A stretch of 64,000 bases of DNA, from the NCBI GenBank assembly GCA_963793265.1, contig CAWBZI010000001.1, forward strand, positions 1,440,001 to 1,504,000, read 5' to 3'. The DNA comes from an uncultured cyanobacterium (GTDB lineage: Bacteria > Cyanobacteriota > Cyanobacteriia > Phormidesmidales > Phormidesmidaceae). The notes under the pieces are model-generated. The model did no database searches. It saw only the letters and a program-made list of their open reading frames with translations, and was not told the DNA's origin. Below, one piece after another: positions 118 through 63,462 of this stretch; the stretch's first letter is position 1; each line of letters opens with the position of its first letter. A program made the translations under genes and the position numbers.

Positions 118-1005
118 ATGGCCCATATTAAAGACCGTCGCGCTGAAAATGCAGAGGGTGACTTTTACGTTGACAGCAGTTGTATCGATTGCGACACCTG
201 CCGCTGGCTATCTCCTGATATCTACGCTCGCGCAGGGAGTAAATCGGTGGTACACCATCAGCCGATTAATAGCGATCAAAGAGTCGCTGCTTTGGAAGCT
301 TTGTTGGCTTGCCCCACCGGATCTATCGGCACTGTAGAGAAGCCAACAGATGTTCGTGAGGTGCAAGCACAGTTTCCACTGCCGGTAGACGACAACGTTT
401 TTTACTGCGGCTACCACTCTGAAAAGTCTTTTGGTGCAGCTAGCTATTTTATTCGAAGGCCAGAAGGCAATGTGCTGGTAGATTCGCCTCGGTTTACGCC
501 GCCGCTGGTGAAGCGTTTGGAAGCGATGGGCGGTGTGCGCTATATGTATCTGACGCATCGGGATGATGTGGCCGATCACGAGAAGTTTCATGAGCGGTTT
601 GGGTGCGATCGCATTCTTCACGCCGAAGACATTTCTACCAATACCAAAGGCGTCGAAATCCAACCTACTGGCAGCGAGCCTCTAAAGATAGACAATGATC
701 TACTGATTATTCCTCAGCCGGGACACTCACGCGGCCATACGGTCTTACTCTACAGAGGCAAGTACCTTTTCACAGGCGATCATTTAGCCTGGTCAGCTCG
801 ATTAAATCAGCTTCATGCCTTCCGCAACTTCTGTTGGGATTCTTGGCCTCGTCAGATCGAATCGATGAAGGCACTGGCCGACTATACGCAAGACTACGCT
901 TTTGAGTGGGTGCTGCCAGGACACGGACGGCGGTTTTCAGGCAGTGTGGAAGAGATGCGCCAGCAGATGAAAAACTGCGTTCAGTGGATGGAATCTGTTG
1001 CGTAA
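118..1005 (+). CDS. Ferredoxin-fused MBL-fold metallo-hydrolase
   Basis: N-terminal CIDCDTC...CP Fe-S motif, then metallo-beta-lactamase motifs THRDDVADH, PGHSRGH, FTGDH, LPGHG; ATG at 118 preferred over TTG at 109. Confidence 0.85.
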   Translation: MAHIKDRRAENAEGDFYVDSSCIDCDTCRWLSPDIYARAGSKSVVHHQPINSDQRVAALEALLACPTGSIGTVEKPTDVREVQAQFPLPVDDNVFYCGYHSEKSFGAASYFIRRPEGNVLVDSPRFTPPLVKRLEAMGGVRYMYLTHRDDVADHEKFHERFGCDRILHAEDISTNTKGVEIQPTGSEPLKIDNDLLIIPQPGHSRGHTVLLYRGKYLFTGDHLAWSARLNQLHAFRNFCWDSWPRQIESMKALADYTQDYAFEWVLPGHGRRFSGSVEEMRQQMKNCVQWMESVA

Positions 1006-1050
1006 AATCTGTTGTTTTAGAACATTGCTAGCGCTACGAGATGAAAAAAC

Positions 1051-1076
1051 AAAAAGCCCAGTCGAAATGACTGGGC
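1051..1076 (-). terminator. Intrinsic terminator of the PEP-CTERM gene
   Basis: GCCCAGTC-gaaat-GACTGGGC hairpin (1056-1076) followed by a T-run on the minus strand. Confidence 0.7.
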
Positions 1077-1117
1077 CAGAGTAACGTTCAAAGATAAGGT
1101 CAAACAAGCGTGGCGTT

Positions 1118-1921
1118 CTAGCCTGCTTGCGCTTGCTTGCGCTTGCGAGTAGCAAATGCACCTGCAACAATTGCGCCGAGTCCTAGCAGAGAAGATGGCT
1201 CAGGAATATCTTGCTCAGCGACACTACCTAGCAGCTTGAAGTCAGGGCCGTTGTAAGATTTGCCCTTGCTAGTGACACGTACAGAGTTAATGAACCCATT
1301 GGTAATGCCGAAGTCTTCTAGACCTAAGCCAATAGAACCCACTTTTTGCGAGCCGCCAATTTCTTTTGTGTTGATTTTGAAGCCTGCGTTGTCCCACTTT
1401 TTGGAGTCTAGTTTGATAAGATTGCCAATCTCGTTGCCATTGGCATCTAAAGCTTGAATATCGAGCTTGCTGTTTTTGCCGCGCTCCCACAAAAAGATAT
1501 TGTCAACAGCCTGATCAAAGTTAAGGTCTAGAATGAAGTTGCCTTTGTCCTCAGTATCGATGATGTTGTTGAGGTTGAGGTTGCTCATGACGGCTGCTGC
1601 ACCTGCGTTGGTGAGGGCTTCTTCTCTGAGGCCAGTGGTTGCCAAATCACCAATGTCCGCGCTAGCTGCGCCGCTGTTGCCGCCTGTATAAAGGTCGTTA
1701 GAGAGAATGTTTGCAGAGGTTACGAGCGTGAAGTCGTCAATGACTCGGCCACTTTCTAGCGTGATGGAGTTTAAGAAGATGTCGCCTTTAGAAGCTGCGC
1801 CGCCAGTGAGTGACTTAGTGTAGTCTGCTTGAAAGGAGAAGGCTTGGGCGGGTGCTGAGGAAAGAGCGATCGCGCCAACAGCCAACAGACCAACACTTGT
1901 AACAAACTTGCTAGTTTTCAT
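1118..1921 (-). CDS. PEP-CTERM (exosortase-dependent) surface protein, XDP2-like
   Basis: Signal peptide ending APAQA; C-terminal IPEPSSLLGLGAIVAGAFATRKRK sorting signal. Confidence 0.85.
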   Translation of the reverse strand: MKTSKFVTSVGLLAVGAIALSSAPAQAFSFQADYTKSLTGGAASKGDIFLNSITLESGRVIDDFTLVTSANILSNDLYTGGNSGAASADIGDLATTGLREEALTNAGAAAVMSNLNLNNIIDTEDKGNFILDLNFDQAVDNIFLWERGKNSKLDIQALDANGNEIGNLIKLDSKKWDNAGFKINTKEIGGSQKVGSIGLGLEDFGITNGFINSVRVTSKGKSYNGPDFKLLGSVAEQDIPEPSSLLGLGAIVAGAFATRKRKQAQAG

Positions 1922-2213
1922 AATGCTTCTTTTTAGAGTGAGTAGGTAAGGAGTGTGTGAAACCAAATTCTGGGCGGTCGGTTGAGCGGTTCGCTGCGGT
2001 TGACTTGCCCTCGATGTAATCAGAATGCACCACCGGAATAAATAAAGTCGGTGGAAACGTCACATCTTTGCGAGATACTCTAAAAGCCCTTTAATTACGC
2101 AGATTCTACTGAGTTCAGAAAGCTTGCCGCACTCAGAAATTGTACGTCCGAGAATTCTCTGTGATGTCTGCTTACCTCAGTAGATAAGCCGAGAGATTGC
2201 GTGGGTTTACGGC

Positions 2214-2243
2214 AAAAAGCCGCCTTAGTCATATAAGGCGGCT
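2214..2243 (-). terminator. Intrinsic terminator downstream of polA
   Basis: AGCCGCCTTA-gtcata-TAAGGCGGCT followed by a T-run on the minus strand. Confidence 0.7.
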
Positions 2244-2314
2244 CTGTTGAAGTGATGAGAGTTGTTCTTTCTCGCTAAGTGAAATCACAAAGCTGTTATG
2301 TTCAGTTCAGCGTT

Positions 2315-5239
2315 CTATTTCGCTTCCATCCAGTTTTTGCCAGCATTCGCCTCCACTTTGAGCGGCACCATTAGCGATACGGCTGATTCCATCGTGCTTT
2401 CAATCTTCGGCTTCAGCTCATCCCATTCATCCGGTGGCACCTCAAAAATCAGTTCGTCATGCACTTGCAAAAGCATTTTGGCCTCGTAGCCCTTCAGCAG
2501 CTCATGTATCCGAATCATCGCGACTTTAATAATATCGGCGCTAGATCCTTGAATAGGTGCATTGGCAGCGGCTCTCAGTGAACCTGCATCGAAGCCGTTA
2601 GTGCGCAGCTTGCCAAGATCTACCTCATCAGGATCGGTGCCTTTAAGCGCCTGTAAGCTGCGCGTTGTGAAGTTGAAGTAGCGGCGACGACCGGCGATGG
2701 TTTTGACAAAGCCGTTCGCGATCGCCTCTCTCTGCATCTGCTGCAAATAGTTAAACACCATCGGATAGCGATCGTTAAACCTGTCAATAAACGTCTTTGC
2801 ATCTAACCGATGTACGCCCGTCTCTCTGGCAAACCGAGCCGCCCCCATGCCATAGATCACGCCAAAGTTAATAATCTTCGCCATCCGGCGCTCATCAACA
2901 GAAATCTCTTCTCTATCTTTTTCAAACAGCAGCGTAGCTGTCAGCCTATGCACATCGTCATTGTTACGATAGGCTTCTACCAAAATTGGCTCGCCGCTGA
3001 GGTGCGCCAAAATCCTCAGCTCTATTTGAGAATAATCAGCCGCCGCTAAATGCCAGCCTTCTTTAGGCAAAAATGCCTGTCGGATCTGACGGCTGAAGGC
3101 GGTGCGCGTCGGGATGTTCTGCAAGTTGGGGTTTGAAGAAGAAAGTCGCCCTGTAGAAGTGACCGCCTGGTTGAAGTCAGTATGTACGCGGTTTGTGGCA
3201 GGCCGAATCAGCGCTGGGAGTGCATCAACATACGTAGATTTCAGCTTTGAGAGGGTGCGATATTCCACCACGGCATCAACCACGGGATGATCGCCCTGGA
3301 GTTTTTCAAGCGTAGCGGCATCTGTTGAATAGCCCGTTTTATTTTTACGAGACTTTCGCTTATCGAGGCCCAAAGTATCAAAGAACAATGTGCTGAGCTG
3401 TTTGGGCGAACCTAAATTAAACTCTTCCCCGGCTGATTCGTAGGCGGCTTTTTCAATAGAAGCTAAGTCACCTTCTAGCTGCTTCGAGAACTTATCGAGG
3501 TAGGGCTTATCAATCCGAATGCCAGTCGCTTCCATATTGGCTAGCACGGGCTCAACGGGTAGCTCAACTTCTCGATATAGCTTTTCGAGTTCGGGAGACT
3601 GTGCCAAATCAGCTTTGAGCAAAGGCACGAGGCGGTAGGTGGTGTGTACGTCGCTGCCACAGTAGTCTGCAACTTTAGCGATCGCCACTTCCCCAATACT
3701 TTTACCCTTCGGCACCAAGTCGGTATAGCTAACCGTCATCAGCTCCAAATACCGCAGCGACAAATCCGACAGATTATGACTGTTCTCGGGATTAATCACG
3801 TAGCTCGCCAGCATCGGATCGAAGGTAACGCCTGCTAGTTCAACACCTGCACGTCTCAGCACCAAACGGTCGTACTTCGCATTCTGAAACGCCTTCGGAT
3901 AGTCTGCATTTTCTAAAATGGGTCGCAGCGCATCAACGACCGCTTTCTCGGAAAGCTGTTTGCCTGTAGTATGGCCCACCGGAATGTAGGCCAGATCGGT
4001 TGAGCCTTCTCCCCAACAGCAGCCAATCCCAACCAAATCAGCCTCTAGCGGATCAATCGAATTCGTTTCGGTGTCCCAGGCAACAGGCACTTCTGGATCT
4101 GTAAATGCTTCGAGCGTTTCAACTAACGCTTTTAGCTGCTCAGCAGTCGTAATGATTTGCGGCTGAATCTCTACGCCGCTCAGTCCCATTTGCTCAACGG
4201 CGTCTGTCTCTTCAGCAGTAAAAAACGCCAGATCAGGATCTTCAAACGTCTCAGGCAGCGCTTCTACTGGAATCGGCGCAGGCGGCACATAGTCAGACTC
4301 ACCGCCAAAGAAAGACTGAAGCTTGCTAATGCGATTAATAAAGTGCTGAAGCTCTAGCTTTTTAAGCATCGGCACCACTTCATCCGCATCAAAGCCTTCG
4401 AGCTTACAGCTATCCAAATCCGTCTCTACCGGCACATCAGTCATGATGGTCGCTAAAAACTTCGACTGCTTAGCCTCCTCTACACCTGCCTCTAGCTTCT
4501 TCTTAACCGCGCCTTTTATCTCATCAATTGAGGCATAGATAGTCTCCAAGTCACCATAGGTATCCAGTAGCTTAACGGCTGTCTTTTTACCAATGCCTTT
4601 CACGCCTGGAATATTATCAGAGGTGTCTCCACACAGCGCCTTATAGTCAACCACCTGACTCGGCAAAATCTCAAGCTTCTCGTAAACCTCAGCCACGCCA
4701 TACTCTGTAGCCGATCCCTTCTGCCGAGCAAATGCATTGCTAAGGTACAGTACCTTGATATTTTCTTCCGTATCAATGAGCTGAAAAAGATCCTGGTCGC
4801 CGCTCAAAATTCTCACCTGCTGACCTGCGGCCATCGCCCGAGTGGCCAGGGTACCGATCATGTCGTCTGCTTCGTAGCCTGGCTCGCAAAAGATTGGAAA
4901 CTTAAACGCTTCAAGCAGTCCTTTTAAGTTTTCGACATCCTCAGTAAATTCCTCTGGCGTTTCAGCGCGTCCGGCTTTGTAAGTGTCTGTAGTTTCGTGG
5001 CGAAACGTCGGCGCGGCCAAATCAAAGGTGATAGCTACGCAGTCCGGTTTTTCAGCCTCTAGCGTGTCGATGAGGGATTTGAGAAAGCCAAAGCACACGC
5101 TGGTCGGAATGCCGGTAGAGGTGCGCAGCCCACCGTCACGGCTGCGGGCAAACGCATAGTAGGAGCGGAAGGCCAAAGAGTGACCATCTACCAGCATTAA
5201 AACAGGCTTGTCTTTTGACTTATCTACAGGAGAACTCAA
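2315..5239 (-). CDS. polA: DNA polymerase I
   Basis: 5'-3' exonuclease (LVDGHSLAFRSYYA, EADD), 3'-5' exonuclease (WDTET), family A polymerase motifs (DYSQIELR, KIINFGVIYG, LQVHDEL). Confidence 0.98.
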   Translation of the reverse strand: MSSPVDKSKDKPVLMLVDGHSLAFRSYYAFARSRDGGLRTSTGIPTSVCFGFLKSLIDTLEAEKPDCVAITFDLAAPTFRHETTDTYKAGRAETPEEFTEDVENLKGLLEAFKFPIFCEPGYEADDMIGTLATRAMAAGQQVRILSGDQDLFQLIDTEENIKVLYLSNAFARQKGSATEYGVAEVYEKLEILPSQVVDYKALCGDTSDNIPGVKGIGKKTAVKLLDTYGDLETIYASIDEIKGAVKKKLEAGVEEAKQSKFLATIMTDVPVETDLDSCKLEGFDADEVVPMLKKLELQHFINRISKLQSFFGGESDYVPPAPIPVEALPETFEDPDLAFFTAEETDAVEQMGLSGVEIQPQIITTAEQLKALVETLEAFTDPEVPVAWDTETNSIDPLEADLVGIGCCWGEGSTDLAYIPVGHTTGKQLSEKAVVDALRPILENADYPKAFQNAKYDRLVLRRAGVELAGVTFDPMLASYVINPENSHNLSDLSLRYLELMTVSYTDLVPKGKSIGEVAIAKVADYCGSDVHTTYRLVPLLKADLAQSPELEKLYREVELPVEPVLANMEATGIRIDKPYLDKFSKQLEGDLASIEKAAYESAGEEFNLGSPKQLSTLFFDTLGLDKRKSRKNKTGYSTDAATLEKLQGDHPVVDAVVEYRTLSKLKSTYVDALPALIRPATNRVHTDFNQAVTSTGRLSSSNPNLQNIPTRTAFSRQIRQAFLPKEGWHLAAADYSQIELRILAHLSGEPILVEAYRNNDDVHRLTATLLFEKDREEISVDERRMAKIINFGVIYGMGAARFARETGVHRLDAKTFIDRFNDRYPMVFNYLQQMQREAIANGFVKTIAGRRRYFNFTTRSLQALKGTDPDEVDLGKLRTNGFDAGSLRAAANAPIQGSSADIIKVAMIRIHELLKGYEAKMLLQVHDELIFEVPPDEWDELKPKIESTMESAVSLMVPLKVEANAGKNWMEAK

Positions 5240-6785: not shown

Positions 6786-6793
6786 TGCCAACT

Positions 6794-31354: not shown

Positions 31355-31458
31355 CGACTGTGGCATAGGATTTTGCTGATCGCTTTCAAGCCTATTGTTC
31401 CGCTGCTCATGGGTAGTAAGTGGTAGGTTTACGTAGACTGAGTTTGGACAGCTTTGCA

Positions 31459-34347
31459 ATGGGATGGCCTTGGCAGCGAAAGGAGAAGCAGGCGCAGAGT
31501 GAGCCCGTGTTGGAGCCGCTATCTGATCGCCAGTACGAGCAGTTGTTTTTGGCTTTGTTAAAGGATGTTGAGGAAGGGCGATCGCTTCAGCAACTGCAGG
31601 CTCGACTTGGTGGGCGGCAGCAGGATAGTAGCTTTGTTAGCTGGTTGAGGCGGTTTGGGCGATCGCGATTAGAAAATCCGGCAGCACATGTGGCATTGGG
31701 ACAACAGATGGTTGCACTAGCAGAGGTTGAGCTAGGGCCATTGAGTGTACTTTCGGGTGAAATCGGCAAGCAGTTGCTAACACAGGATGCAGCGCCGAGA
31801 TCTGAGGCTCTATCGGATGAACCGCAGCCTGCTCAGGTGATAGATGAAGAAACGACTACGGAAGAGATCACTAGGCGAGCGGACTTTTACTTTCAGCAGG
31901 GGAAAGAATCTTATTATCAAGGTGATTTGAGAGGAGCGATCACTGCATATAACAAAGCTCTGGATATCAACCCTTATTTATATGGAGTGTTGGTTAACAA
32001 AGGTGTATCCCTTGCCCAGTTAGGGCTATACGATGCTGCACTCGTTGTCTACAACCAAGCTCTAGGAAATAAGCCCGATGATTATATAGTACTCACTAAT
32101 AAAGGTGGATTGCTTGCCAAATTAGGCAACTATGAGGCTGCAATCACTCTCTATAATCAAGCCTTGACAATAGAATCAGATGATTACGTAACACTCTACA
32201 ACAAAGGCATAGCGCTTGTTGAACTGGGACAATACGAAGAGGCAATTGCAATCTACGACCAAGTTCTAGAAACCAAGACCGACTTGCACGAAGTGTTCTA
32301 CAACAAAGGTATAGCGCTCGCTAGCTCAAGACAATATGAAGCTGCAATCGCTGCCTACGATCAATCTCTAGAAATCAAGCCTGACAAGCGTTCAGCACTT
32401 GTCAATAAAGGTATAGCACTTGCTAACCTCGGGGGACAGTATGAAGCTGCAATCATGGCTTTTGATCAAGCCCTATCCATCAACCCAGATGATCATGGCA
32501 CTTGGATAAATAGGGGTGTAGCTGTCAGCAAATCCATCAGATGTAATACGTCAATAACCTTTTCTTTGCCTGCTCTGCTACGGCACGAATCCCTAGACAA
32601 ACGCGGCTACGAAGGTAGAATTGCCTGCTACACCATCGGGCTCAGACATGTCCACAAAGACAAAGATCCAGAAGGCTGGGGCTTACTCCATCACGAAAAG
32701 GGCCGCGCTCACTACTTCCATAGTCGCTCCCTGGCCAACGCATCTATCTACCTCGCCCAAGCCACCGACGCTTACGGCAAAGCTCTCGCCACGCTCACCG
32801 CCTTCCCCACACGCCATCTCGCTGTCTGCCAGGACGCTATCCGTGCCTACCTCGGCCTCAACAAAGCCGAAATAGCTAACCAATACCGTGAAGAAGGACT
32901 TCAACTTTTCCGCCAGCTTCTCAACGAAGCCCCAACCCTATCCGCAAAGCGCCGTCTAGAAACGCAGTTTTCCGGCTTTAGCCAGCTCCAAGTCGATACC
33001 CTCTTGAAAACCAACAGCCCCAACACTGCCCTAGAGACCGCCGAACGCTACAAAAACCGAACCCTCACCTGGCTTCTCGACACTTGGAAAGAACAAACCA
33101 TCAGCCCAAGCTGGGCCGACATGCAAACGCTACTTACTCCCAGCACCGCCGCTATCTTCTGGCACCTCAGCTCCGATACCCTCACCACTTTCCTCCTCTC
33201 CTCAGACTCAGCCGACCCACAAGTTATCTCCACCGCTTCAGCCGAAGCCTTCAATCAGTGGAACAAAGACTGGCAGCAGCGCTACCAAACCTATCGAAAA
33301 AAGAGCAAAGCCACTGATGACACAGATACAGAGAGAGATAGACCTAACCATCCCTGGCGACTGAACCTCAGCAAAGACCTACAAACCCTCAGTGAAATCC
33401 TAAACATATCTCGAATAGAAACCGCGCTCACCGATTGCGATTACCTCATCCTCATTCCTCACAGGCAGCTCCACCAGCTTCCTCTCCACGCCCTATTCAC
33501 AGATGCATTCATTACTACCTATCTTCCCAGTATCCAAGCTGGCCTCACCCTTCAGCATAAGGCCAGGCAAAAATCTCAAAGCACCTCACCACCTCACCCA
33601 GCACTACTTCTCGAAACCCCAGCAAGTAACCGCTACGAGCCGCTCATCTTCGCTGAAGTAGAAACTGCCCTCATTGCCTATCTCTGCCAACAAAGCGATC
33701 AGCAACCCACTCTCATCGATAGCGCCCAAGCCCACAATCAAACTCTCATCGCCACCCTTCAACAGCCCCACTGCCTCTTTCACTTCACTGGCCACGCTGC
33801 CCACGACTATCGCCACCCGCAAAACTCTGCCCTAGCCCTCATAGGCGAAGACACCCTGAGCGCTGCCGAAGTCGCCACGCTTCCTCTCAAAACTTATGGT
33901 CTAGTAACGCTTGCTGCCTGCGAAACTGCCGTAGCCGGACAAGAAAACCTCGAAACCGACTACGTAGGCTTATCCAGTGCCTTTCTTACCGCCGGAGCAG
34001 CCCAGGTCATCAGCACCCTCTGGACTGTAGACTCGCAATCTAACGCCTGGCTCATGGTGAACTTCTATCAGCGCTACCTCACGGGTACTTCTGCCTCTCT
34101 TGCCCTACACCAAGCACAGCAATGGCTTCGCACCGCTACCTATACACAGCTTGCCGACTGGCTAGCATCCTTAAACACACCATCCTTCTGTCAGCATTGT
34201 ACCGCAGATGAAGATGAAACCTTAGTTGGTAAAATAGGGGAATATAGAGACAAATCCAGAGATTTAGACCTGAGTCAAACACCCTACGCGAACCCTTACT
34301 ACTGGGCAGCGTTCACCCTCACTGGGTATCACCATGAAAGCGAATGA
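31459..34347 (+). CDS. TPR-CHAT (caspase HetF-associated) protease
   Basis: Helical N-domain, six full TPRs plus one partial, CHAT motifs LILIPH..LHQLPLHAL, HFTGHA, LAACET, FLTAGA..VISTLW, YYWAAFTLTG. Confidence 0.92.
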   Translation: MGWPWQRKEKQAQSEPVLEPLSDRQYEQLFLALLKDVEEGRSLQQLQARLGGRQQDSSFVSWLRRFGRSRLENPAAHVALGQQMVALAEVELGPLSVLSGEIGKQLLTQDAAPRSEALSDEPQPAQVIDEETTTEEITRRADFYFQQGKESYYQGDLRGAITAYNKALDINPYLYGVLVNKGVSLAQLGLYDAALVVYNQALGNKPDDYIVLTNKGGLLAKLGNYEAAITLYNQALTIESDDYVTLYNKGIALVELGQYEEAIAIYDQVLETKTDLHEVFYNKGIALASSRQYEAAIAAYDQSLEIKPDKRSALVNKGIALANLGGQYEAAIMAFDQALSINPDDHGTWINRGVAVSKSIRCNTSITFSLPALLRHESLDKRGYEGRIACYTIGLRHVHKDKDPEGWGLLHHEKGRAHYFHSRSLANASIYLAQATDAYGKALATLTAFPTRHLAVCQDAIRAYLGLNKAEIANQYREEGLQLFRQLLNEAPTLSAKRRLETQFSGFSQLQVDTLLKTNSPNTALETAERYKNRTLTWLLDTWKEQTISPSWADMQTLLTPSTAAIFWHLSSDTLTTFLLSSDSADPQVISTASAEAFNQWNKDWQQRYQTYRKKSKATDDTDTERDRPNHPWRLNLSKDLQTLSEILNISRIETALTDCDYLILIPHRQLHQLPLHALFTDAFITTYLPSIQAGLTLQHKARQKSQSTSPPHPALLLETPASNRYEPLIFAEVETALIAYLCQQSDQQPTLIDSAQAHNQTLIATLQQPHCLFHFTGHAAHDYRHPQNSALALIGEDTLSAAEVATLPLKTYGLVTLAACETAVAGQENLETDYVGLSSAFLTAGAAQVISTLWTVDSQSNAWLMVNFYQRYLTGTSASLALHQAQQWLRTATYTQLADWLASLNTPSFCQHCTADEDETLVGKIGEYRDKSRDLDLSQTPYANPYYWAAFTLTGYHHESE

Positions 34348-35134
34348 AGCCCTTACTTTAGATGCCTGCTTGCTGGCACTGTTGCACTACGGCGACAGCG
34401 TACCCCTCCACCTGCACAAGCAAATCCAGATGGCTAACCAGCAGCTTGCCAATCGCCAACCCGGCGCTGTCAAGCAGCTCAAAAACGTGCTCCAGCAAGA
34501 CAAGCAGCTAGATCAACTGTATGCCGCTTCTCGCAACTATCTGGCGACTCAATACGGCCAGCAGGAGAGAGCGAAAAGTGTCTTTGGCGTAGGCACTCTG
34601 CCGATGCCCTCTATAAGACCCAGCTTGGCACCCGCTACCGGCTCTAATGGCTTTAGTTTTGGTTTAGTCGATTTAGCGACGGATATTTTGAGTAGTCCTG
34701 ATGCCAACTACCGGATCAAAGCGCAGCAAGTGTTAAGGCGACCGCAACTGCAAAGGCAGCTCGAAAAGGCGTCTGAAGAATTGCGAGTATCAGCCCAAGA
34801 GCTTTCTAAAGCTGCCAATCGGCTGCATCCTACCAAGGTGGCCATCATGAAAAAGATAGAAAACAACTTTTTTACCCTAGACGATGTTGCCTACAGCCTC
34901 GAACTTCCAGTAGAAAACGCACAGCGCTACATAAAATCCCTTTGGAATGAGGGCTATGTTCGTCCGACTTCTGGAAACCTCTTGAAGCAACTATGGCTAT
35001 CGTGGAAAGGGGCTCCGGCTTTAGAAGACTTACCTGATATCGAAACCTCTCTGGCTCTGACAACCAAAGGCCATTTTTACCTGCATCCTGGTACCTTGGG
35101 TAACTACTTGAACAGAAAGCGGAGGTATGCATAA
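34334..35134 (+). CDS. Hypothetical protein, N-terminal helical domain and C-terminal winged-helix-like domain
   Basis: Overlaps the CHAT stop by 14 nt; FTLDDVAYSLELPVENAQRYIKSLWNEGYV...LALTTKG resembles wHTH. Confidence 0.7.
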   Translation: MKANEALTLDACLLALLHYGDSVPLHLHKQIQMANQQLANRQPGAVKQLKNVLQQDKQLDQLYAASRNYLATQYGQQERAKSVFGVGTLPMPSIRPSLAPATGSNGFSFGLVDLATDILSSPDANYRIKAQQVLRRPQLQRQLEKASEELRVSAQELSKAANRLHPTKVAIMKKIENNFFTLDDVAYSLELPVENAQRYIKSLWNEGYVRPTSGNLLKQLWLSWKGAPALEDLPDIETSLALTTKGHFYLHPGTLGNYLNRKRRYA

Positions 35135-35137
35135 GCA

Positions 35138-35905
35138 ATGCAGCAGGGTATTGCTTGGTTGCCTCAGCTTTTAGTTACTTCAGTGCCCGGCGTCATCAAT
35201 GTTTGGCTATCTGGCGGCGAGCAGAGGAAGGAGTTTCAGCAAAAGCTTCCCATTTTTGGACCGTCAAAGAGTCCGGCGTGGTGGTTTTTGCAACTGGTTC
35301 AGTTTTTAGTTCCTGCTGCCTTGTTTTGGTGGGCAGCGCCTGCCGCCTTTCGGATTCCACCGCCTGCTGTAACTCGGCCACTCGATTTTGTAATGTGGGC
35401 CAATGCGATTGCCTTCGGTTGGGGTTTTGTGGCTCTTATCAATGCACCAATCAGCATTCTTTCCGCAGGAATGCTGGAGCCTGGCACGATATATGCAAGG
35501 TTAGTCAGAAACCTGTACGAAACAATAGACAACAGAGAAAAGCCCAAAATGCGGCGGTTCCGACGAGAGCTAATAGTCGAGCTTGAGAAAACACCTCACT
35601 TCTCAAATAAAGGGTTTGATGATTTGGCTGAATGCTTAGGCGTTTCGTTTGATCTGCTGAGTAATCAGAGTTTACCGCTCGATAGCAGAACCGAATCCAT
35701 CGTCCGTAAAGTAAACGCTATTAAAGCTCAGCCTACGCAAGCGCAAAAGGCAACAGAGATTGTCAAACTGCTAAGAACCGAAGAAGTCCTCACTGTTCAC
35801 GACTGGCCAGAACTCATCCGCGCCTTTGGTGGACGAGATGTTTTCATTCAGCGCTACTTTAAAGTTCGTCCATCTCCTAAAAAAGGTAGTCGCTCGCATC
35901 CATAG
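35138..35905 (+). CDS. Hypothetical multi-pass membrane protein
   Basis: About three hydrophobic segments in the first ~110 aa, then a charged helical domain; starts 3 nt after the preceding stop. Confidence 0.72.
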   Translation: MQQGIAWLPQLLVTSVPGVINVWLSGGEQRKEFQQKLPIFGPSKSPAWWFLQLVQFLVPAALFWWAAPAAFRIPPPAVTRPLDFVMWANAIAFGWGFVALINAPISILSAGMLEPGTIYARLVRNLYETIDNREKPKMRRFRRELIVELEKTPHFSNKGFDDLAECLGVSFDLLSNQSLPLDSRTESIVRKVNAIKAQPTQAQKATEIVKLLRTEEVLTVHDWPELIRAFGGRDVFIQRYFKVRPSPKKGSRSHP

Positions 35906-35950
35906 CCTTGTAGTACGCTGATAGACTGCAATCTCTATTAGCTAACCTAT

Positions 35951-37399
35951 ATGTCTGTTCGCGTTCGCATTGCCCCTAGCCCTACTGGAAACCTACACAT
36001 CGGTACGGCTCGCACGGCGGTCTTTAACTGGCTGTTTGCTCGCAATCAAGGCGGTCAGTTTTTACTGCGAATTGAAGATACTGACTTAGAGCGCTCTAAG
36101 GACGAGTATACGCAGAACATTATGGACGGGCTGAAGTGGCTGGGGATGGATTGGGATGAAGGCCCGTTCTATCAGTCGCAGCGGATGGAGATGTACCGCG
36201 AGAAGATTCAGGAATTATTAGATAAAGGGCTGGCGTATCGGGCGTATGAGACGCCGGATGAGCTGAATGCGATGCGTGAGGCGCAGCAGGCTCGGAAGGA
36301 AGCGCCACGCTATAACAATCAGCATCGTAACCTCACAGATGAGCAGGTTGCGGCATTTGAGGCTGAAGGTCGGCAGGCCGTGATTCGCTTCAAGATTGAT
36401 GATGGTCGTGAGGTGAAGTGGAATGACCTTGTGCGCGGCAATGTGAGCTGGAAGGGGCGCGACTTAGGTGGCGATATGGTGGTGTCCAGGGCGGCATCTA
36501 AGGGAGATGTGGGTCAGCCGCTCTACAACTTTGTGGTGGTGGTGGATGATGCGGATATGAAAATTAGCCATGTGATTCGCGGGGAGGATCATGTGGGGAA
36601 TACGCCGAAGCAGATTTTGCTGTATGAGGCGATGGGAATGGAGGTGCCGGTGTTTGCGCATACGCCGCTGATTTTGAATGAGTCGGGAGCGAAGCTGTCT
36701 AAGCGCGATGGCGTGACTTCGGTGGGCGATTTTCAGGAGATGGGCTTTACGGCTGAGGCGCTGGCGAACTATATGACGCTGCTGGGCTGGTCTGCACCGG
36801 ATACGCAAGAGCTATTTACGCTCGAAGACGCTGCCAAGCTGTTTAGCTTTGATCGGGTGAATAAGGCGGGCGCTAAGTTCGATTGGGATAAGCTCGACTG
36901 GATCAATAGCCAGTATTTACATGAGAAACCGGCTAAGGAACTTTTGCCGATGCTGATGCCCTATTGGGATGAGGTAGGCTACGGGTTTGATGCTGAAGCT
37001 GATAAGGAATGGCTGCTGCCTTTGACGGCGATGATTGCGCCTAGTTTGACGCGGCTAAAAGACTGTGTGGAGCTGGGTCACTTCTTTGTTAAGCCGACGA
37101 TGGACTTTAGTGATAAGGCAAAGGAGCAGCTTGGTAAAGAAGGTGTGGCTGAGGCGATGCAGGCCGTGATAGAGGCTTTGAAAGATACGGAGGTGTACGG
37201 GGCTGAGGCGGCTAAGGGTGTGATTAATCAGGTGACGAAGGCGCAGGGGGTGAAGAAGGGATTGGTTATGCGATCGCTCAGAGCCGCCCTCATGGGAGAC
37301 ATGCAAGGCCCCGATCTCGTCGAATCCTGGATGATTCTGCACCGTAGAGGATTCGATCAGCAGCGGCTAGAAGCGGCTGTCTCAATCGCAAAGGGTTAG
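35951..37399 (+). CDS. gltX: Glutamate--tRNA ligase
   Basis: [31 protein letters not shown]. Confidence 0.98.
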
Positions 37400-43859: not shown

Positions 43860-44038
43860 GTATGAGGCTGGCTGTATAAAATTAAGTGCTGTTATGGCGT
43901 GCTAGAGAAAGCCATTTGGAACGAAAATGACAAGAAGACGTTCTAGTCAGCTAGGGTTGCTAAAGACTACTGTGTAGAATTGATACATCATCGCTCTTGT
44001 TTATTAAGCGAATTGGCGAAACGCTTCACGCTCTATCT

Positions 44039-46504
44039 ATGGCTGCTCCATTGCTCAATCATCGCTACCGTATTTTGAAGTCTTTAGCTGAAGGGGGCTT
44101 TGGCAAAACGTTTTTGGCTGAAGACACGCAGATGCCCTCGAAGCGGCAGTGTGTGATTAAGCAGCTCAAGCCGATGAGTGATCGCCCAGCGGTATTTGCT
44201 CTCATTCAGCAGCGCTTTTCTAGAGAGGCAGCAGTGCTAGAAGCGGTAGGCAAAGGCAGCGACCAAATCCCGGATCTGTACGCATACTTCTCAGAAGACA
44301 ATCAGTTCTACCTCGTCCAAGAATGGGTAGAAGGGCAACCCCTGAGCGCTGTGGCTCAAGACACTTGGACCGAAGAACGCGTTAATAAGCTCGTTATCGA
44401 TGCCTTGAAAGCGCTGGCGCATGTGCACCGGCAAAACATCATTCATCGTGATATTAAGCCTGACAATATTATTCTGAGAAAAGCCGATCAGCTACCGTGC
44501 CTAATAGATTTTGGGGCGGTGAAAGAAGTGATGAGCACGGTGCTGAGTGCTTCGGGCTCGCCTAAAACGTCTTTGGTGATTGGAACGCCTGGATTTATGC
44601 CACCGGAGCAGTCGGCAGGACGGCCTACATTTGCCAGTGATATCTATAGTTTGTCGATGACGGCAATTTATCTGCTGACGGGGCGATCGCCCACCGAAAT
44701 CCCTACCGACAGCAGCAACGGACGCCTGCTCTGGCAGCAGTACGCTCCCAACCTCAGCACTCGCTTTGCCAGCATTCTCACTCGTGCCATTCACCCCTAT
44801 CCTCAAACCCGCTACGCCACCGCTAGCGACATGCTCGAAGCCCTAACGACAGCATCACCCACAGTCGTCTCTGAATCAAAAACGACTGCACCGCTAAGAT
44901 CGTCTGCTGCGCCGACAGTGGTGGCTTCTCCTTTGAGCCCAGCGGCTGGTCAGGTTGCTAATTCTCAACCGGGTCAGGCTACGGTCATCAACACGCCTGC
45001 GCCCAGCTCAAAGCGTTCTTCAGCGCTCCCTTGGAAGCGAATCGGTTTGGCAGCAGGTGCGCTGGTTTTAGGAGCAGGCATTATCGCAGGGCTACGGCCT
45101 CAGCTATCGTTTCAAGGCAGCTCATCAGAAGCAACGCTAGAAGACTTTCGAGGGCGAATTGCAACGTTAGAGAGAACCGTGGAGGGCGAGCCTGATAATG
45201 AGTCGGCTCAGGTTGAACTAGCTGAGAACTATGTCGAGGTAGGTGAGTACGATGAAGCGATTTCTCAGCTAGAGCCTTTGCTTGCACAAGCGCCTAACGA
45301 TGCTGCGGCCCTTACTGCTAAAGGCGAAGCTCAGTTTGCAACTGGCGATTACGCAGCCACGATAGAAACCACTACGAGAGCGATAGAACAAGGTGAACCG
45401 AGCGCCAAGACTTATAACCTGCGAGGCGATGCTTATTACGAAACGGGTGAATATGACAAAGCTGTTGACGACTACCGCAGCGCTATTCGCGTAGATCCTG
45501 ATAATGGGTTGGCCTATAGCAACTGGTCTGCTGTCAATGTGGTGAGGGGCAACGGGCAAGAGGCTTTGCAAAATTTGAACTTAGCAGTTGAGAAAGACCC
45601 TGGCTTGATTTCGGGCTTTGTGAATAGAGGCAGTCGTAAGGCTGAGCTAGGCGATAATTTGGGCGCAGCTAAAGACTGGCAGCAGGCGATTTCGCTGCCT
45701 GTGACGACCGCGAATGAGTACGCTAGTAGGGGCTATGCAAAGTCTCGTATGGGTGATAAGAGGGGAGCGATTGATGACTATAATCAGGCGCTAATTATCA
45801 ATCCTAAACTGGCTCGTGGCTATGTGAATCGAGCGGCTGTTTTTTATGAGCAAGGCGAGCAAGCGCAGGCTCTGAGCGAACTAGAAAAAGCGCTCGCGAT
45901 CAATCCTAATTCAGTTAATGCGCTTATCTTTAAAGGAGAGATCAATGCTTTTAAGACAAATCCTGATGCAGGTGCTGCGTTAGCTGCCTATAACAAGGCA
46001 CTTGAGGTCAATCCGAACGATCCTGGCGTACTTAACAACCGCTGCTCTGCATACTTCGCGGCTCAGCAGTTTGATTTGGCGCTGACTGACTGTGACTTAG
46101 GCTTGCAAACCAATCCGCGCAGCGCCGCTCTATACAATGGACGGGGCAATATTCGCTTACAGCAAGAGAATTTTGAGGGTGCTATTCAAGACTACAGTCG
46201 AGCAATTGAGATCTTTAATGCTGAAGGCGCGGAGCAAAGAAATCAGCCTATTTATTCTAATAGGGCTAGTGCCCTTGTGCAGATTGGCGATCTCAACGGT
46301 GCGCTTAGTGATGTCAACAAAGCATTGGAGCTGAAGCCAGATGCGCCTGAGGATTACTACAAGCGCGGGCTGATTAAAGTGACTCAAGAAGATCGAGAAG
46401 GCGGCGCTGCTGATTTGCGCAAGGCGGCCGACTTGTATATTGAGCAAGGGCGCACTGATAGTCACAAAAACGTCATAGCTATGATGGAGCAGTTAGGTCT
46501 TTGA
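44039..46504 (+). CDS. Ser/Thr protein kinase with TM and long TPR array
   Basis: GGFGKT, VIKQL, HRDIKPDN, DFG, GTPGFMPPEQ; TM segment; many TPRs. Confidence 0.93.
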   Translation: MAAPLLNHRYRILKSLAEGGFGKTFLAEDTQMPSKRQCVIKQLKPMSDRPAVFALIQQRFSREAAVLEAVGKGSDQIPDLYAYFSEDNQFYLVQEWVEGQPLSAVAQDTWTEERVNKLVIDALKALAHVHRQNIIHRDIKPDNIILRKADQLPCLIDFGAVKEVMSTVLSASGSPKTSLVIGTPGFMPPEQSAGRPTFASDIYSLSMTAIYLLTGRSPTEIPTDSSNGRLLWQQYAPNLSTRFASILTRAIHPYPQTRYATASDMLEALTTASPTVVSESKTTAPLRSSAAPTVVASPLSPAAGQVANSQPGQATVINTPAPSSKRSSALPWKRIGLAAGALVLGAGIIAGLRPQLSFQGSSSEATLEDFRGRIATLERTVEGEPDNESAQVELAENYVEVGEYDEAISQLEPLLAQAPNDAAALTAKGEAQFATGDYAATIETTTRAIEQGEPSAKTYNLRGDAYYETGEYDKAVDDYRSAIRVDPDNGLAYSNWSAVNVVRGNGQEALQNLNLAVEKDPGLISGFVNRGSRKAELGDNLGAAKDWQQAISLPVTTANEYASRGYAKSRMGDKRGAIDDYNQALIINPKLARGYVNRAAVFYEQGEQAQALSELEKALAINPNSVNALIFKGEINAFKTNPDAGAALAAYNKALEVNPNDPGVLNNRCSAYFAAQQFDLALTDCDLGLQTNPRSAALYNGRGNIRLQQENFEGAIQDYSRAIEIFNAEGAEQRNQPIYSNRASALVQIGDLNGALSDVNKALELKPDAPEDYYKRGLIKVTQEDREGGAADLRKAADLYIEQGRTDSHKNVIAMMEQLGL

Positions 46505-46520
46505 TAGAGAGCATTGAATA

Positions 46521-48221
46521 GTGGCAGGCTTACTCAATCATCGCTATCGAATTTTAAGATCTTTGGCTGAAGGAGGCTTTGGTAAAACCTTTCTGGCCGA
46601 AGACATTCAGATGCCTTCGCGGCGGCGCTGCGTGATTAAGCAGCTTAAATCGGCTAGTTCGGAGCCTGGCATTGCTCAGATTGTGCGCGATCGCTTCGCC
46701 CGAGAAGCTGCCGTCTTAGAATCAGTCAGCAAAGGCAATCCACAGATTCCCGATCTGTACGCTTACTTCTCAGAAGGCAATCAGTTCTACCTCATTCAAG
46801 AATGGGTAGAAGGCACGCCCTTACACCAAACCATTCCGCCTACTTGGTCTGAAGAGAGCGTGGTTAAATTCCTTACAGACGTATTGCCTGCTTTAGATCT
46901 GGTTCATCAGCAGAATATTGTTCATAGAGATATTAAGCCTGAAAATATAATTTTGCGTCAGCGCGATCGGCTACCTTGTCTGATTGATTTTGGCGCAGTA
47001 AAAGAGATGATAAGCACCGTTGTCTCTGCTGGCACTCGCGAAAGTTCTATAGTGATTGGTACGCCTGGGTTTATGCCACCGGAGCAGGCAGCAGGGCGGC
47101 CTACGTTTGCCAGTGATTTGTATAGCTTGTCGATGACGGCGATTTACTTGCTGACTGGGCGATCGCCTCACGAAATTTCAACCGACAGCTACACAGGTCA
47201 GGTGCTATGGCAGCAGTATGCAAACGGGATGAGCGATCGCACCGCCGCCATTCTCACTCGCGCCATCAGCCTCAACCCACAAGATCGCTATCCTACTGCT
47301 GCTGATATGCTATCAGCGTTATCACAAGCCTCTGAATACAAAGCACAGATAGCAGAAACCGTAGTTTCGGCCCAGCCCAGCTTGCTTTCAGCTCGAGTCT
47401 TAGATGCTGACCCTAAGCAAAAAACGAGGATTAGCTGGCGGTATGCGGGTATCGGTAGTGGTGTCTTAGCAGTTGTGGCTTTGATCTGGGGGGGATCTCA
47501 GATTCAGCGGCTTACAGTTGAGCGATCGCAAAGTCCAACAGAAAACTCTTCCACCGTAACCATAGAAAGAAATCAAAAGCAACAACCTTTGGCTGAAGGA
47601 GATTCTATAGCAGAACTCACAGCTTCTATAGAATCGATAGAGAAGACTATCACTGAAGGCTCGGATGCTTTTGATAAGGGAGCGCTAGCGATCAACTATC
47701 TCGATAGAGCTGAAAAACTGTACGCTGAAGGCCGAGAATCACGTGCGCTAACAGACATTAACAGCGCTGTGATGTACGATTCTACTTTAGCCGATGCCTT
47801 TGTCCTTAGAGGTGATATTTACGCTAACCAGTCTCGGCCAGATTTTGAGGGGGCGATCGCTGCCTACACCGAAGCGCTCAACACCCCTGAGCTTCTCGAT
47901 CCGATAGCCGCCAGAATATTTGGCAAGCGATGCCAAACCTACGTGAAGCTTGAGAACTGGGCGCTAGCCGAAGAAAACTGCACCCGAAGCCTGAATCTTA
48001 ATGGCACTAATGCAGGAATCTACGCCGTTCGAGGCGATATCTACGCTGCGCAAAACGAGCTTGAGCAGGCCAATGAGCAGTACAGCATTGCGATAGAAAT
48101 TAATGAAGAAAGCGGTGTTGACGACCGCAGCGTTTACTACCGAAGATCTCAAGTAAGAGAGAAAATGGGAGACGCAGAAGGCGCTTTGTCTGATCTGCAA
48201 TACATCAGAACACCGCAGTAG
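46521..48221 (+). CDS. Ser/Thr protein kinase with TM and short TPR array (tandem paralogue)
   Basis: HRDIKPEN, DFG; TM segment; C-terminal TPRs. Confidence 0.92.
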   Translation: MAGLLNHRYRILRSLAEGGFGKTFLAEDIQMPSRRRCVIKQLKSASSEPGIAQIVRDRFAREAAVLESVSKGNPQIPDLYAYFSEGNQFYLIQEWVEGTPLHQTIPPTWSEESVVKFLTDVLPALDLVHQQNIVHRDIKPENIILRQRDRLPCLIDFGAVKEMISTVVSAGTRESSIVIGTPGFMPPEQAAGRPTFASDLYSLSMTAIYLLTGRSPHEISTDSYTGQVLWQQYANGMSDRTAAILTRAISLNPQDRYPTAADMLSALSQASEYKAQIAETVVSAQPSLLSARVLDADPKQKTRISWRYAGIGSGVLAVVALIWGGSQIQRLTVERSQSPTENSSTVTIERNQKQQPLAEGDSIAELTASIESIEKTITEGSDAFDKGALAINYLDRAEKLYAEGRESRALTDINSAVMYDSTLADAFVLRGDIYANQSRPDFEGAIAAYTEALNTPELLDPIAARIFGKRCQTYVKLENWALAEENCTRSLNLNGTNAGIYAVRGDIYAAQNELEQANEQYSIAIEINEESGVDDRSVYYRRSQVREKMGDAEGALSDLQYIRTPQ

Positions 48222-55495: not shown

Positions 55496-55598
55496 TCTTT
55501 TTGCATTCTTAGGGCTAGCAAGGGGCAAGAGCCGTCATACAAGCGTACTATAGCTCTCAACTATATTGCTTAGCCCCAGCAAAGTTAGCAAATCCTCA

Positions 55599-58439: not shown

Positions 58440-59280
58440 GAGCAAAACACCCTTATGCAAAAGTAGCGTGCGACGTTTTTTGGCAAGGTCACTTTGTTAG
58501 AAAGTTGTCTTTTGGCCGAAAAACGTCGCGCGGAGTTATGAAGCAAGCTGGCGACTTGAATGTGTCAGCAGACTCGAAAAGAATGCGATAGCAGCAAACT
58601 TACCTTCATGAGTTCCCCGTGAAAATCGACTTGAAGACTTCTCTAAACCAACTCAACAAACAATTAAGATAAGTTGATTCATCAAGCCCTTTTGGTCGGC
58701 TTCCTAGATGAAGATAGACAACTTTTAAAGCAAATAAACAGGGGGTCTGCACCCTCACCCCACATACAGCAAAAAAGGTTGATATACCGTGATTACCATT
58801 GACTTAGGGGCAACTACTTAAGGGGTTCTTTTGATATCAAGTGGGCTTGATATGCATCTCTTAAGTCCTAGTTAAAATTACATAATGGAGGATATCTTTG
58901 CGCGATATTCGGACGTGTATTTGCCGAGATAGAGAGGCTGCGATCGCCCAGCATCAAAAAAGATTGTTTCCAACTAAGCCATTTAGCTTATTTATATTTT
59001 CAGCAAAAAATCAGTACAAAAAACGATGAACTGTCAAAAAAACGTTGATGGATTCAGTTTATTCTCTCAATACAACAAATTTGATTGATTAATAGTTTAT
59101 AAGCACTTTTTAGCAATCTTGTTACTTTTTTGGAGTGAACATATTGCGCATAAAATCAAGCTAAATTGATGATTAAGAAAGACGCGCTGATACCGTTTAA
59201 ATAAAGATGTTTATTAGCCTGTTAGTTGAATCGGTACATCAGCTTTTTCAATGGCTTCGATAGCTACTTTCTTATGCTCT

Positions 59281-60309: not shown

Positions 60310-60397
60310 AGAGCGTTTTTTAATGGGGTATCTATCGAGATAGGAATAGACGCTATTTGGGCCTTTAGCTGCGCTGAAGTGGAAACCCTGAACCTAT

Positions 60398-60772: not shown

Positions 60773-60780
60773 TGGGTGCT

Positions 60781-62076: not shown

Positions 62077-62272
62077 GAAGAGAAGGCGTATGCAATAATC
62101 ACCAGCTTAGCGTGGAATCTCAAAGCAGATCTGAAGCTTGTACGGATCTCAAATGTGCTTTTGCGCACGCGGCAACTGCCCAAAAAAGGATCTGGGCATG
62201 TCATATATGAATATTCGATGTTATGATGGCATATCCTAATAGCCTTCTCTCAAATATATCTACGGGCAAGTA

Positions 62273-62578
62273 ATGGCAAATACTAAATCTGCGCTTAAGC
62301 GTATCAAAGTTGCAGAGCGAAATCGTTTGCGCAATAAAGCATATAAGTCGGCGGTGAAGACATTCACAAAGCGCTATCACGAAGCGGTAGCCGCTCACGA
62401 AGCATCGCCTTCTGAAGAGAGCGAAAAGCTTGTGCAAGAAAGAATGTCTATGGCCTACAGCAAAATCGATAAGGCTGTAAAGCGCGGCGTGTTTCATCGC
62501 AACGCAGGCGCTAGACGCAAGTCTAATTTGGCTAAGGTGCTCAAAAACGACAGCGTTAACGACAGCGTGAGCGCATAG
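62273..62578 (+). CDS. rpsT: 30S ribosomal protein S20
   Basis: [10 protein letters not shown]...[20 protein letters not shown]. Confidence 0.97.
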
Positions 62579-62622
62579 TTTTTTCGCGTAGTGCATCACG
62601 TCAGGCGACCTGTGAGATCTCT

Positions 62623-62654
62623 TTTAAGACCTTTTTAGTTTAAGACCTTTTTAG
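62623..62654. repeat. 16-bp exact tandem duplication
   Basis: TTTAAGACCTTTTTAG x2. Confidence 0.9.
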
Positions 62655-62664
62655 ATGGGGTTGA

Positions 62665-63462
62665 ATGCGCTTAGTCGATACACACGTCCATATCAATTTT
62701 GACTCGTTCGATGAGGATCGAGATGCGGTTGCAGCAGCTTGGAGACAGGCGGGTGTGGCTCATTTGGTGCACTCTTGTGTTGATCCTAGTGAGTTTGAGA
62801 AAATTCGGGCGATCGCCCAGCGCTATCCAGAAGTGTCTATGGCGGTCGGGCTGCATCCCCTAGACATGGACAAGTGGACGCCTGAAACGGCTGAGCAGAT
62901 TGCAACCCTTGCGGCCAGCGAGCCAAAGGTGGTTGCAATTGGTGAAATGGGTCTTGATTTTTTTAAGGCTGATGATAAAGCCGTTCAAAAGCAGGCTTTT
63001 TTGGCTCAGCTAGAGATTGCTCAGTCGCTGGACTTGCCGGTGATTATTCACTGCCGAGAAGCGGCGGCTGAGATGGCAGATTTGCTATCGGACTTTATTG
63101 CCCAGAAAGGCTCTGTCAAAGGTGTGATGCACTGTTGGACAGGGAGCCCAGAGGAGACTCAGCAGTTTTTGGATCTGGGATTTTTTGTGAGCTTTAGCGG
63201 GATCGTTACTTTTAAGAGTGCGACTCAGGTTAAGGCTTCAGCTCAGATGGTGCCAAGCGATCGCCTCCTCGTCGAAACGGACTGTCCTTTCCTTTCTCCC
63301 GTACCCAAGCGCAAAGAAAAACGCAATCAGCCTGCTTTTGTTAGGCATGTTGCTGAGCATGTTGCCGAGCTGAGAGGGATTTCCTTGGAAGTGCTTGCTC
63401 AACAAACTACACAGAACGCTCAACAGTTGTTCCACCTACCTGCTGAACTTCTATCGCCATAG
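62665..63462 (+). CDS. tatD: TatD family hydrolase
   Basis: DTHVH, GLHP, IGEMGLD, IIHCR, HCWTG, ETDCPFL. Confidence 0.95.

Follow-up and report, generated by a model that had tools for sequence, protein, structure and literature searches.

HIP1 sites in the window

We analysed a 64,000-nucleotide stretch of the genome of an uncultured cyanobacterium of the family Phormidesmidaceae (GCA_963793265.1, contig CAWBZI010000001.1, positions 1,440,001 to 1,504,000; G000:C1:1440001-1504000 in our numbering), hereafter the window. The source genome G000 comprises 5.68 Mb on 7 contigs, in which a purpose-written script based on open reading frames (ORFs) and codon scores called 4,907 genes; no annotation was used. 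The element in question is HIP1, the palindromic octamer GCGATCGC, which has gone unexplained for three decades. It occurs 68 times in the window, between 605 and 63264 (1.06 per kb). Among the genes that carry it is polA (2315..5239, minus strand), which encodes DNA polymerase I (Pol I) with a 5'-3' exonuclease domain and gives Pfam and NCBIfam matches above cut-off.

An earlier note on this DNA, made from a few hand-picked sites, had claimed that HIP1 marks a switch from G/T-rich to C/A-rich sequence regardless of gene direction. Counted over all 68 sites without selection, the switch is present: G+T is higher in the 60 bp before HIP1 than in the 60 bp after it at 61 sites (binomial p 7e-12), and at 200 bp in 58 cases, with 9 opposite and 1 tie. 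Gene strand makes little difference, as 33/35 sites in plus-strand genes, 26/30 in minus-strand genes, and 2/3 outside genes fit. The sites at 605..612 in a plus-strand gene (G+T 38/60 before, 22/60 after), 1866..1873 in a minus-strand gene (39/60, 25/60), 3678..3685 inside the minus-strand polA (33/60, 24/60), 37270..37277 in the glutamyl-tRNA synthetase gene (39/60, 28/60), and 44683..44690 in a plus-strand kinase-TPR gene (35/60, 20/60) had been counted by hand before, and those counts agree with ours to 1-2 bases. The base composition of the switch has to be narrowed, however. G-C alone fits the pattern G-rich before, C-rich after at 62 of the 68 sites, and the mean shift per site is 10.9 bases for G versus C and 4.2 for T versus A. 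The G-to-C part of the claim therefore stands, while T and A hardly move at four-fold sites.

HIP1 37270 ends a 5.6-kb HIP1-free gap (31667..37269) with a strong sawtooth, in which third positions go from C-rich at 32100-34100 (to -0.71) to G-rich at 36100-37270 (+0.59); the skew stays at +0.5 to +0.6 across the 1.1 kb before HIP1 37270. The G+T counts given earlier for this gap are exact (19 at 32761-32820, 38 at 36541-36600), and its kilobase skew is real (-0.7 to +0.6). The gap is not typical, however, because its gradient exceeds the genome average for long gaps, which is far weaker (quartile means -0.20 to +0.14), and because it partly overlaps the 102-nt repeat array of a TPR-CHAT gene (31922-32489), whose repeats make the sites within it non-independent. 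The flank after HIP1 31659, which had been left as a misfit, is accounted for by the one-off site GCGATCAC at 31936..31943, which derives from HIP1 by C-to-T decay. It is at this position, not at 31659, that the sequence switches locally: third-position skew is +0.39 in 31601-32100 and -0.37 in 32101-32600.

The footprint is a G/C orientation bias with two ranges

Genome-wide, HIP1 occurs 6,884 times, 26.8-fold over a second-order Markov expectation and at a spacing of ~0.8 kb. G-C is higher before than after HIP1 at 5,749 of 6,768 untied sites (85%), compared with 16,385 of 33,106 random positions (49.5%). Among the 84 palindromic octamers with at least 20 copies on contig C1, HIP1 reaches z = 38.7; the runner-up, ATCGCGAT, which is able to overlap HIP1, has z 4.7, and the others range from -3.2 to +2.3. 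No such profile surrounds these control palindromes, CGATCG alone, or GATC alone.

Split by gene strand, the antisymmetric profile is present throughout at four-fold and intergenic positions. Neither of the outcomes that the earlier note had named as refuting its claim, no antisymmetric profile at synonymous sites or an equal profile around control octamers, was observed. Four-fold GC skew 4-10 bp from HIP1 is +0.60/-0.62 in plus-strand genes and +0.59/-0.60 in minus-strand genes (before/after); the intergenic skew is weaker (+0.28/-0.27). The same-direction shift occurs in 8/8 four-fold boxes, in 10 two-fold families, and in each of the three reading frames. Genes next to an intergenic HIP1 shift too (0.24 ± 0.03 versus 0.30 at 41-100 bp). 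We denote as S the strand lying 5' of the HIP1 site and as S' the strand running 3' from it. On S, logit shifts are +1.3 for G versus A, -0.9 for C versus T, and +0.06 for T versus A, they keep their sign in 48/48 neighbour contexts, and G+C rises only slightly near HIP1. The footprint is a G/C orientation bias and no general keto/amino bias. It extends to the proteins: Met, Val, Glu, and Gly are used more before HIP1, and Thr, Asn, Ile, His, and Pro after it.

With distance, the skew decays as two exponentials, one of 55 bp and one of ~960-990 bp (~1 kb), where the nearest HIP1 is dominant and further sites have a weight of 0.18. A sliding-clamp race and a power law give a slightly worse negative log-likelihood (266,858 and 266,872 versus 266,815). 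No helical periodicity is evident by eye in the per-base profile. Both sides of the footprint are present in 57/57 100-kb bins, shifted additively by the regional skew, and 91 of the 109 HIP1 gaps >3 kb with enough sites (154 in total) go from C-rich to G-rich.

It is scarcely credible that all this is an artefact of codon or amino-acid context or of hairpin extension, or that HIP1 arises at a pre-existing skew switch. In favour of such an account, adjacent bases do depend on one another, and there are kilobase skew blocks that have nothing to do with HIP1. Yet the shift recurs across the four-fold boxes, two-fold families, reading frames, and intergenic sites listed above, hairpin or quasi-palindrome extension left no position-matched complementarity across HIP1, and flanks are weak at HIP1 of one lineage, although this point on reverse causation rests on 35 single-lineage sites.

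Two further observations concern the surroundings of HIP1. At the three base pairs adjoining it, complementarity is below chance (0.19 versus 0.27 at position 1, whole genome), so that palindromic extension is avoided there. Further, strong kilobase skew blocks, independent of gene strand, persist after fitting of the HIP1 model, in the genome and in the window at 32100-34100 and 36100-37270. Residuals per 1 kb have a z standard deviation of 2.7, with 13% beyond 4 and correlation to 10-50 kb; possibly, these blocks are old replichore fragments.

The full octamer is required

The skew difference at intact HIP1 is 0.79 genome-wide. Measured >300 bp from any HIP1, the footprint is absent at CGATCG without both outer bases (-0.004 ± 0.047) and at 4,236 GATC (-0.06 ± 0.01), and variants at position 1 or 8 show little of it (-0.07 to +0.21). 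The C-to-T variant GTGATCGC/GCGATCAC retains 0.65-0.68, GAGATCGC and GCGATCTC give 0.41 and 0.19, and most remaining one-off variants lie at about zero. A scan of 6- to 9-mers in the residuals returned only HIP1 relatives and no second organising motif. The footprint needs the full octamer.

The variant GTGATCGC is 2.2-fold above expectation, while 10 of the 11 other one-off classes lie below, and no other alternative state is as frequent at positions occupied by HIP1 in a relative (24 tallies, next 12). The variant is itself poorly conserved, with 12/43 copies kept and 15/43 opposite a HIP1. These counts suggest that GTGATCGC is a recent deamination product of C5-methylated HIP1 that carries a fossil footprint. 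C5 methylation of cytosine at the relevant HIP1 base has been demonstrated in Synechocystis (PMC6105098).

Occurrence among genomes and candidate methyltransferases

In 29 other members of the genus, the pooled skew difference is 0.92 ± 0.06 (137 HIP1), and 20/20 further stretches from the genus are positive. Outside the genus, we sampled 31 genomes, all from other families, at 13-40 kb each. At least 9 HIP1 were present in 24 of them, of which 20 are positive and five reach z >=2.5 (G095 0.76 ± 0.13, G065 0.40, G024 0.36, G086 0.26, G148 0.83); the pooled effect is 0.15-0.24 within 20 bp. The footprint is absent in G023 (122 HIP1, 0.04 ± 0.05) and G026 (-0.04 ± 0.07). HIP1 is replaced by GGGATCCC in G021 (L033-L034; 63 sites) and by CAGGCCTG in G152 (L060; 10 sites), neither of which has a footprint within error, and G080 (L063) and G158 (L065) hold no abundant palindromic octamer in 20 kb. 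The footprint, although strong throughout the genus, is faint or missing in most of the other families we sampled; it is no universal property of HIP1.

All 7 genus genomes searched encode a 436-aa dcm-family C5 methyltransferase (L335:1468-2778 on contig G000:C4), which looks like an orphan with no evident partner nuclease and may be the CGATCG-specific methyltransferase of the genus. At E 1e-60, four other genera of the family yielded no homologue, and the best named relatives outside the genus include proteobacteria. Both facts together suggest that the gene was acquired horizontally. One methyltransferase of G000 has its nearest named homologues under the labels Phormidesmis sp. and Synechococcus sp. 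PCC 7335, which makes Phormidesmis the likely genus; PCC 7335 carries the orthologous methyltransferase. S. elongatus is described as having no recognisable CGATCG methyltransferase (PMC4390886).

Three further C5 methyltransferases of G000 (L336, L337, L338) each lie beside an unannotated ORF, possibly a restriction endonuclease, and two more C5 methyltransferase genes are broken or split.

Substitution rates around shared HIP1 sites

For the substitution analysis we aligned three genome pairs with outgroups: G005/G037 (150,722 bases, 8.4% different), G006/G050 (94,270 bases, 8.3%), and G007/G004 (33,025 bases, 12.1%). Five G050, ten G005, and one G006 stretches were left out, and one G050 query had no orthologous G006 match. 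The rate data comprise 56,201 third positions with 10,846 differences, exclude positions <=150 bp from unshared HIP1, and were bootstrapped by gene.

On S, changes towards G are favoured (A>G 1.37-1.41-fold, C>G 2.04-fold, T>G 1.79-fold), as is C>T (1.10-fold at four-fold and 1.43-fold at two-fold sites). The disfavoured changes are T>C (0.60-fold), G>A (0.65-0.74-fold), G>C (0.51-fold), and A>C (0.65-fold), and for C>A, G>T, and A/T changes no shift exceeds the error. Pooled, favoured changes run at 1.39-fold and disfavoured ones at 0.63-fold; rises and falls are both present in 3/3 pairs. At short range, slowing dominates (log -0.39 ± 0.07 versus +0.15 ± 0.05), while over ~1 kb the increase dominates (+0.20 versus -0.12). 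Four-fold divergence is 0.210 near shared HIP1 and 0.214 far from it, and within genes it drops slightly towards HIP1 (slope -0.029 ± 0.011 on a mean of 0.229). The rates point to strand-polarised mismatch resolution over plain mutagenesis. The directional, strand-specific process starting at HIP1 that the earlier note had proposed is thus supported, but its purely mutagenic version is disfavoured because total divergence is not raised. The comparison with relatives that had been suggested as a check shows rates polarised around shared HIP1, although the fit polarised by outgroups is noisy and clear only for C>G.

This pattern bears on a damage-based explanation, in which breaks or gaps at HIP1 followed by 5' to 3' resection would leave the upstream strand single-stranded and its C and A damaged, as at human meiotic breaks. 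At those breaks, the exposed strand on the left carries C>N and A>N changes (PMC7615360), which agree in sign and overlap in class with the C>G, A>G, and C>T increases seen here, and the lean of the ~1-kb term to increases would fit resection damage as well. In contrast, the fall in divergence towards HIP1, the short-range term made up mostly of slower reverse changes, the rise of T>G with the fall of A>C, which is unlike amino-base damage, and the lack of T build-up on the upstream strand all speak against it. We disfavour it for the short-range term and consider it decidedly unlikely overall.

The dominance of short-range slowing would also fit a scheme in which HIP1 marks where Okazaki fragments start or join and the skew is written by improved repair or by Pol I synthesis close to fragment 5' ends; the HIP1 spacing of ~0.8 kb together with a Pol I-sized short term points the same way. 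Such a scheme predicts a one-sided footprint per replichore, however, whereas both sides occur in every 100-kb bin, and it leaves the rate increases unaccounted for. We regard it as very improbable.

HIP1 itself is highly conserved. In two sister-species pairs, it is kept in 532 of 572 aligned cases, compared with 6,766 of 12,158 (56%) for octamers of the same composition. Because ingroup and outgroup differ in GC content, a direction test on HIP1 gain and loss is confounded, and we rely on the flank skews only. These are 0.25-0.29 at HIP1 common to all three genomes (183 sites) and 0.07-0.11 at outgroup-only HIP1 (26 sites). From these small numbers, the skew seems to follow the site.

Another reading is that flanks G-rich on the 5' side and C-rich on the 3' side are selected, or driven by uptake, as better substrates of a protein such as RecA or an uptake or loading factor. 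In its favour, giving each base an additive advantage is enough to reproduce the rate ratios, and HIP1 itself is conserved, as also reported elsewhere (PMC5861425). RecA, moreover, has a preference for TGG-rich DNA, and Chi sits in TG-rich regions (PMC3763553). We nevertheless judge selection or an uptake drive on the flanks improbable: T is not favoured, no motif preference emerges from the neighbour contexts or the k-mer scan, the decay is smooth to 1 kb, and the effect is weaker in intergenic DNA. Moreover, the bias also pushes amino-acid use, as non-adaptive biases do.

A serious contender, though on balance an unlikely one, is biased gene conversion, in which HIP1 would start or end strand exchange, in natural transformation or between chromosome copies, with an invading strand of fixed polarity, and mismatch repair would reject the allele of that strand more often when the mismatch contains G, a fixation bias and no mutation bias. 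It yields the same increases and decreases in rate with an unchanged total, and differences in recombination rate would account for the varying strength of the footprint among lineages. A homologous, methylated HIP1 raises transformation up to ~100-fold in PCC 7002 (bioRxiv 10.1101/2024.09.10.611283), a correlation links pilus and competence genes to the abundance of HIP1 (PMC13756078), and ComEC, present in 33/33 genomes searched, fits as well. On the other side, ComEC presence is the same in genomes with strong and with weak footprints, and a 55-bp term is short for strand-exchange tracts. The transformation effect survives deletion of addAB (bioRxiv 10.1101/2024.09.10.611283), and it was shown in a type of lineage with little footprint here (G156, which can be likened to PCC 7002 only roughly).

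A model of HIP1-directed strand replacement

Every favoured change on S can be read as a G-containing mispair that S wins, and every disfavoured change as one that S' would have had to win. From this bookkeeping, the simplest rule is that S' is replaced with S as template, 5' to 3' from HIP1. We therefore favour, with a confidence somewhat short of even, a model in which a HIP1-directed nick and subsequent 5'->3' replacement of the downstream strand write the footprint. A putative protein would nick at the HIP1 octamer, probably in its C5-methylated form, and the strand 3' of the nick would be removed and recopied 5' to 3' from the partner strand. Mismatches near HIP1 would thereby be settled by position, regardless of which strand is new, with the upstream base winning. 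The mismatches may come from replication errors, from damage, or from heteroduplex formed by two chromosome copies. If G mispairs (G:T, G:G, G:A) are those most often formed or acted on, and C:C, A:C, and C:T are not, the retained strand would gain G and the replaced strand C, with A and T nearly neutral. In E. coli, G-T is efficiently repaired and C-C is not (PMC5416779).

Nick translation by Pol I may underlie the ~55-bp term, and excision linked to MutS/MutL the ~1-kb term. Pol I is accordingly the candidate enzyme for the shorter term, and the presence of polA in the window is a coincidence. MutS and MutL are both found in G000, by motif matches only. Damaged copies of HIP1 would be repaired by this activity as well, with the intact strand as template, which would give high conservation without selection on each site. 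MutY occurs in 33/33 genomes at E 1e-40 (30 above cut-off). Strong and weak genomes are not separated by MutY, ComEC, MutH, or NucS (33 genomes) or by Vsr (91).

Several points weigh against the nick-and-replacement model. A per-base fixation bias, by conversion or selection, predicts almost identical rate ratios, so that the rates do not single out repair. No nickase candidate emerged from searches for MutH (0/33 genomes, with a positive control in E. coli), Vsr (0/91 genomes of the family), or NucS (none in G000, short weak matches only in 4/33 genomes). The methyltransferase homologue is uncoupled from the footprint outside the genus, since G156 has it and shows 0.07 ± 0.10, while G095 gives no match and shows 0.76 ± 0.13. 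The rates were estimated under stationarity and reversibility; the latter assumption ties the forward-to-back ratio to composition but leaves the level of the rates free; the favoured and disfavoured classes were set only after a first look at the rates. The outgroup-polarised fit mentioned above is clear only for an increase in C>G (2.0-fold), and raw divergence in the G006 pair is higher near HIP1 (0.23-0.26 versus 0.19-0.20) before correction for gene rate. Finally, both the excess of G:T over A:C mispairs and the tract length of Pol I enter the model as general background.

A broader proposal, on balance rather doubtful, is that HIP1 is the entry site of a self-perpetuating repair activity, in which a putative methyl-reading nickase, Pol I, and MutS/MutL would settle mismatches by position, always rewriting the 3' strand, make and protect HIP1, and write the sawtooth into synonymous and amino-acid composition; it would also be what turns HIP1 into a transformation hotspot. 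If this were true, the abundance of HIP1 would reflect molecular drive and no selection, and other hyper-abundant bacterial palindromes would be independent cases. The footprint itself is sequence evidence that something works along one strand away from the intact HIP1. It sets the direction of that action, its range (~55 bp and ~1 kb), the site required, and the lineage in which it is strongest. The footprint also offers a non-selective account of HIP1 conservation, which has been read as selection (PMC5861425). The bias is also large enough to distort codon-bias and amino-acid analyses in the genus. We found no description of a flank skew at HIP1 in searches of the open-access literature or by word searches within three main HIP1 papers, a point on which the supplements of Elhai 2015 and Xu 2018 may bear; searches on skew at hotspots likewise gave nothing relevant.

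The uptake gene ComEC is unusual in this genus. Its frame (G000:C6:84222-85778, outside the window) is 512-545 aa long in 7/7 genus genomes searched and in G191, while other intact cases have 620-870 aa, and in G000 no in-frame partner gene follows. Thus, the C-terminal part of ComEC seems to be missing in the genus.

Comparison with known systems

The closest counterpart is the repair postulated by Elhai, in which a GmeC-directed nickase acts at HIP1 with ~1-kb reach (PMC4390886, section 3.4). Both proposals share strand choice by a putative nickase, postulated there to act at GmeCGATCG, a reach of ~1 kb, and a ratchet that creates and keeps HIP1. The Elhai model fits our data because the outer G/C are needed, a ~1-kb term exists, and most one-off sites are depleted; its need for G before the methylated C agrees with the lack of any footprint at CGATCG without outer bases. 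Unlike in that model, however, 7-mer half-extended sites are not enough here, as the position 1 and 8 variants show, and the rates point to strand choice by position, not by age. The section on the model gives neither an excision direction nor a 55-bp term, and the words "skew" and "asymmetr" have 0 occurrences in the main text (PMC4390886), which presents the hypothesis without a flank signature.

Dam/MutH repair in E. coli likewise uses a methylated palindrome as entry and prefers G-T over C-C, and MutS, MutL, and Dam-like genes are present here. In contrast, MutH was not found in the genomes searched, GATC outside HIP1 has no footprint, and repair in E. coli runs in both directions and reduces the mutation rate, while the HIP1 process is polar with little net change. 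Very short patch (VSP) repair by Dcm, Vsr, and Pol I acts at a C5-methylated site, makes a short 5' to 3' Pol I patch, and leads to site enrichment. The site (C5-methylated here only probably), patch, and enrichment resemble HIP1, but Vsr is lacking in the family genomes searched, and VSP repair handles only T:G inside the site, whereas here all flanking G/C changes are affected to 1 kb. The lack of NucS in G000 sets NucS/EndoMS repair apart.

Chi is also an over-represented octamer with a G-rich 5' side and is a proposed recombination signal. Unlike the palindromic HIP1 with its mirror-image footprint, Chi is polar and one-sided, and T is not enriched at HIP1. Chi islands are reportedly attributed to codon usage, whereas the HIP1 signal is independent of gene strand and codon box. 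The HIP1 activity is not a member of the Dam/MutH, VSP, or NucS repair systems or of Chi; it works like Elhai's postulated repair.

Replication GC skew flips at the terminus once per replicon, over megabases. It shares with HIP1 the order G-rich before, C-rich after; the HIP1 switch, however, is repeated at ~6,900 places in the genome, spans 55 bp to 1 kb, and is two-sided in all bins. Human meiotic breaks show a mirror-image bias of the same sign (C>G, A>G, C>T) at a sequence-defined site, but are mutagenic, peak 700-800 bp off-centre, and have a symmetric central 100 bp (PMC7615360), whereas the HIP1 asymmetry is greatest right at the site and goes with slower reverse changes and no rise in the total rate.

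Other features of the window

Within 31420-35905 lies the TPR-CHAT protease gene with its repeat array; two ORFs that overlap or abut come next, neither with a family match. At 43997-48221, tandem kinase-TPR genes contain 73-82% identical stretches spaced 2,476-2,479 bases apart, which marks a local duplication. Further downstream (52727-58460), a Rad50/SbcC-like ATPase adjoins a fusion of a caspase-like protease with a STAND NTPase (nSTAND1), an arrangement reminiscent of defence modules.

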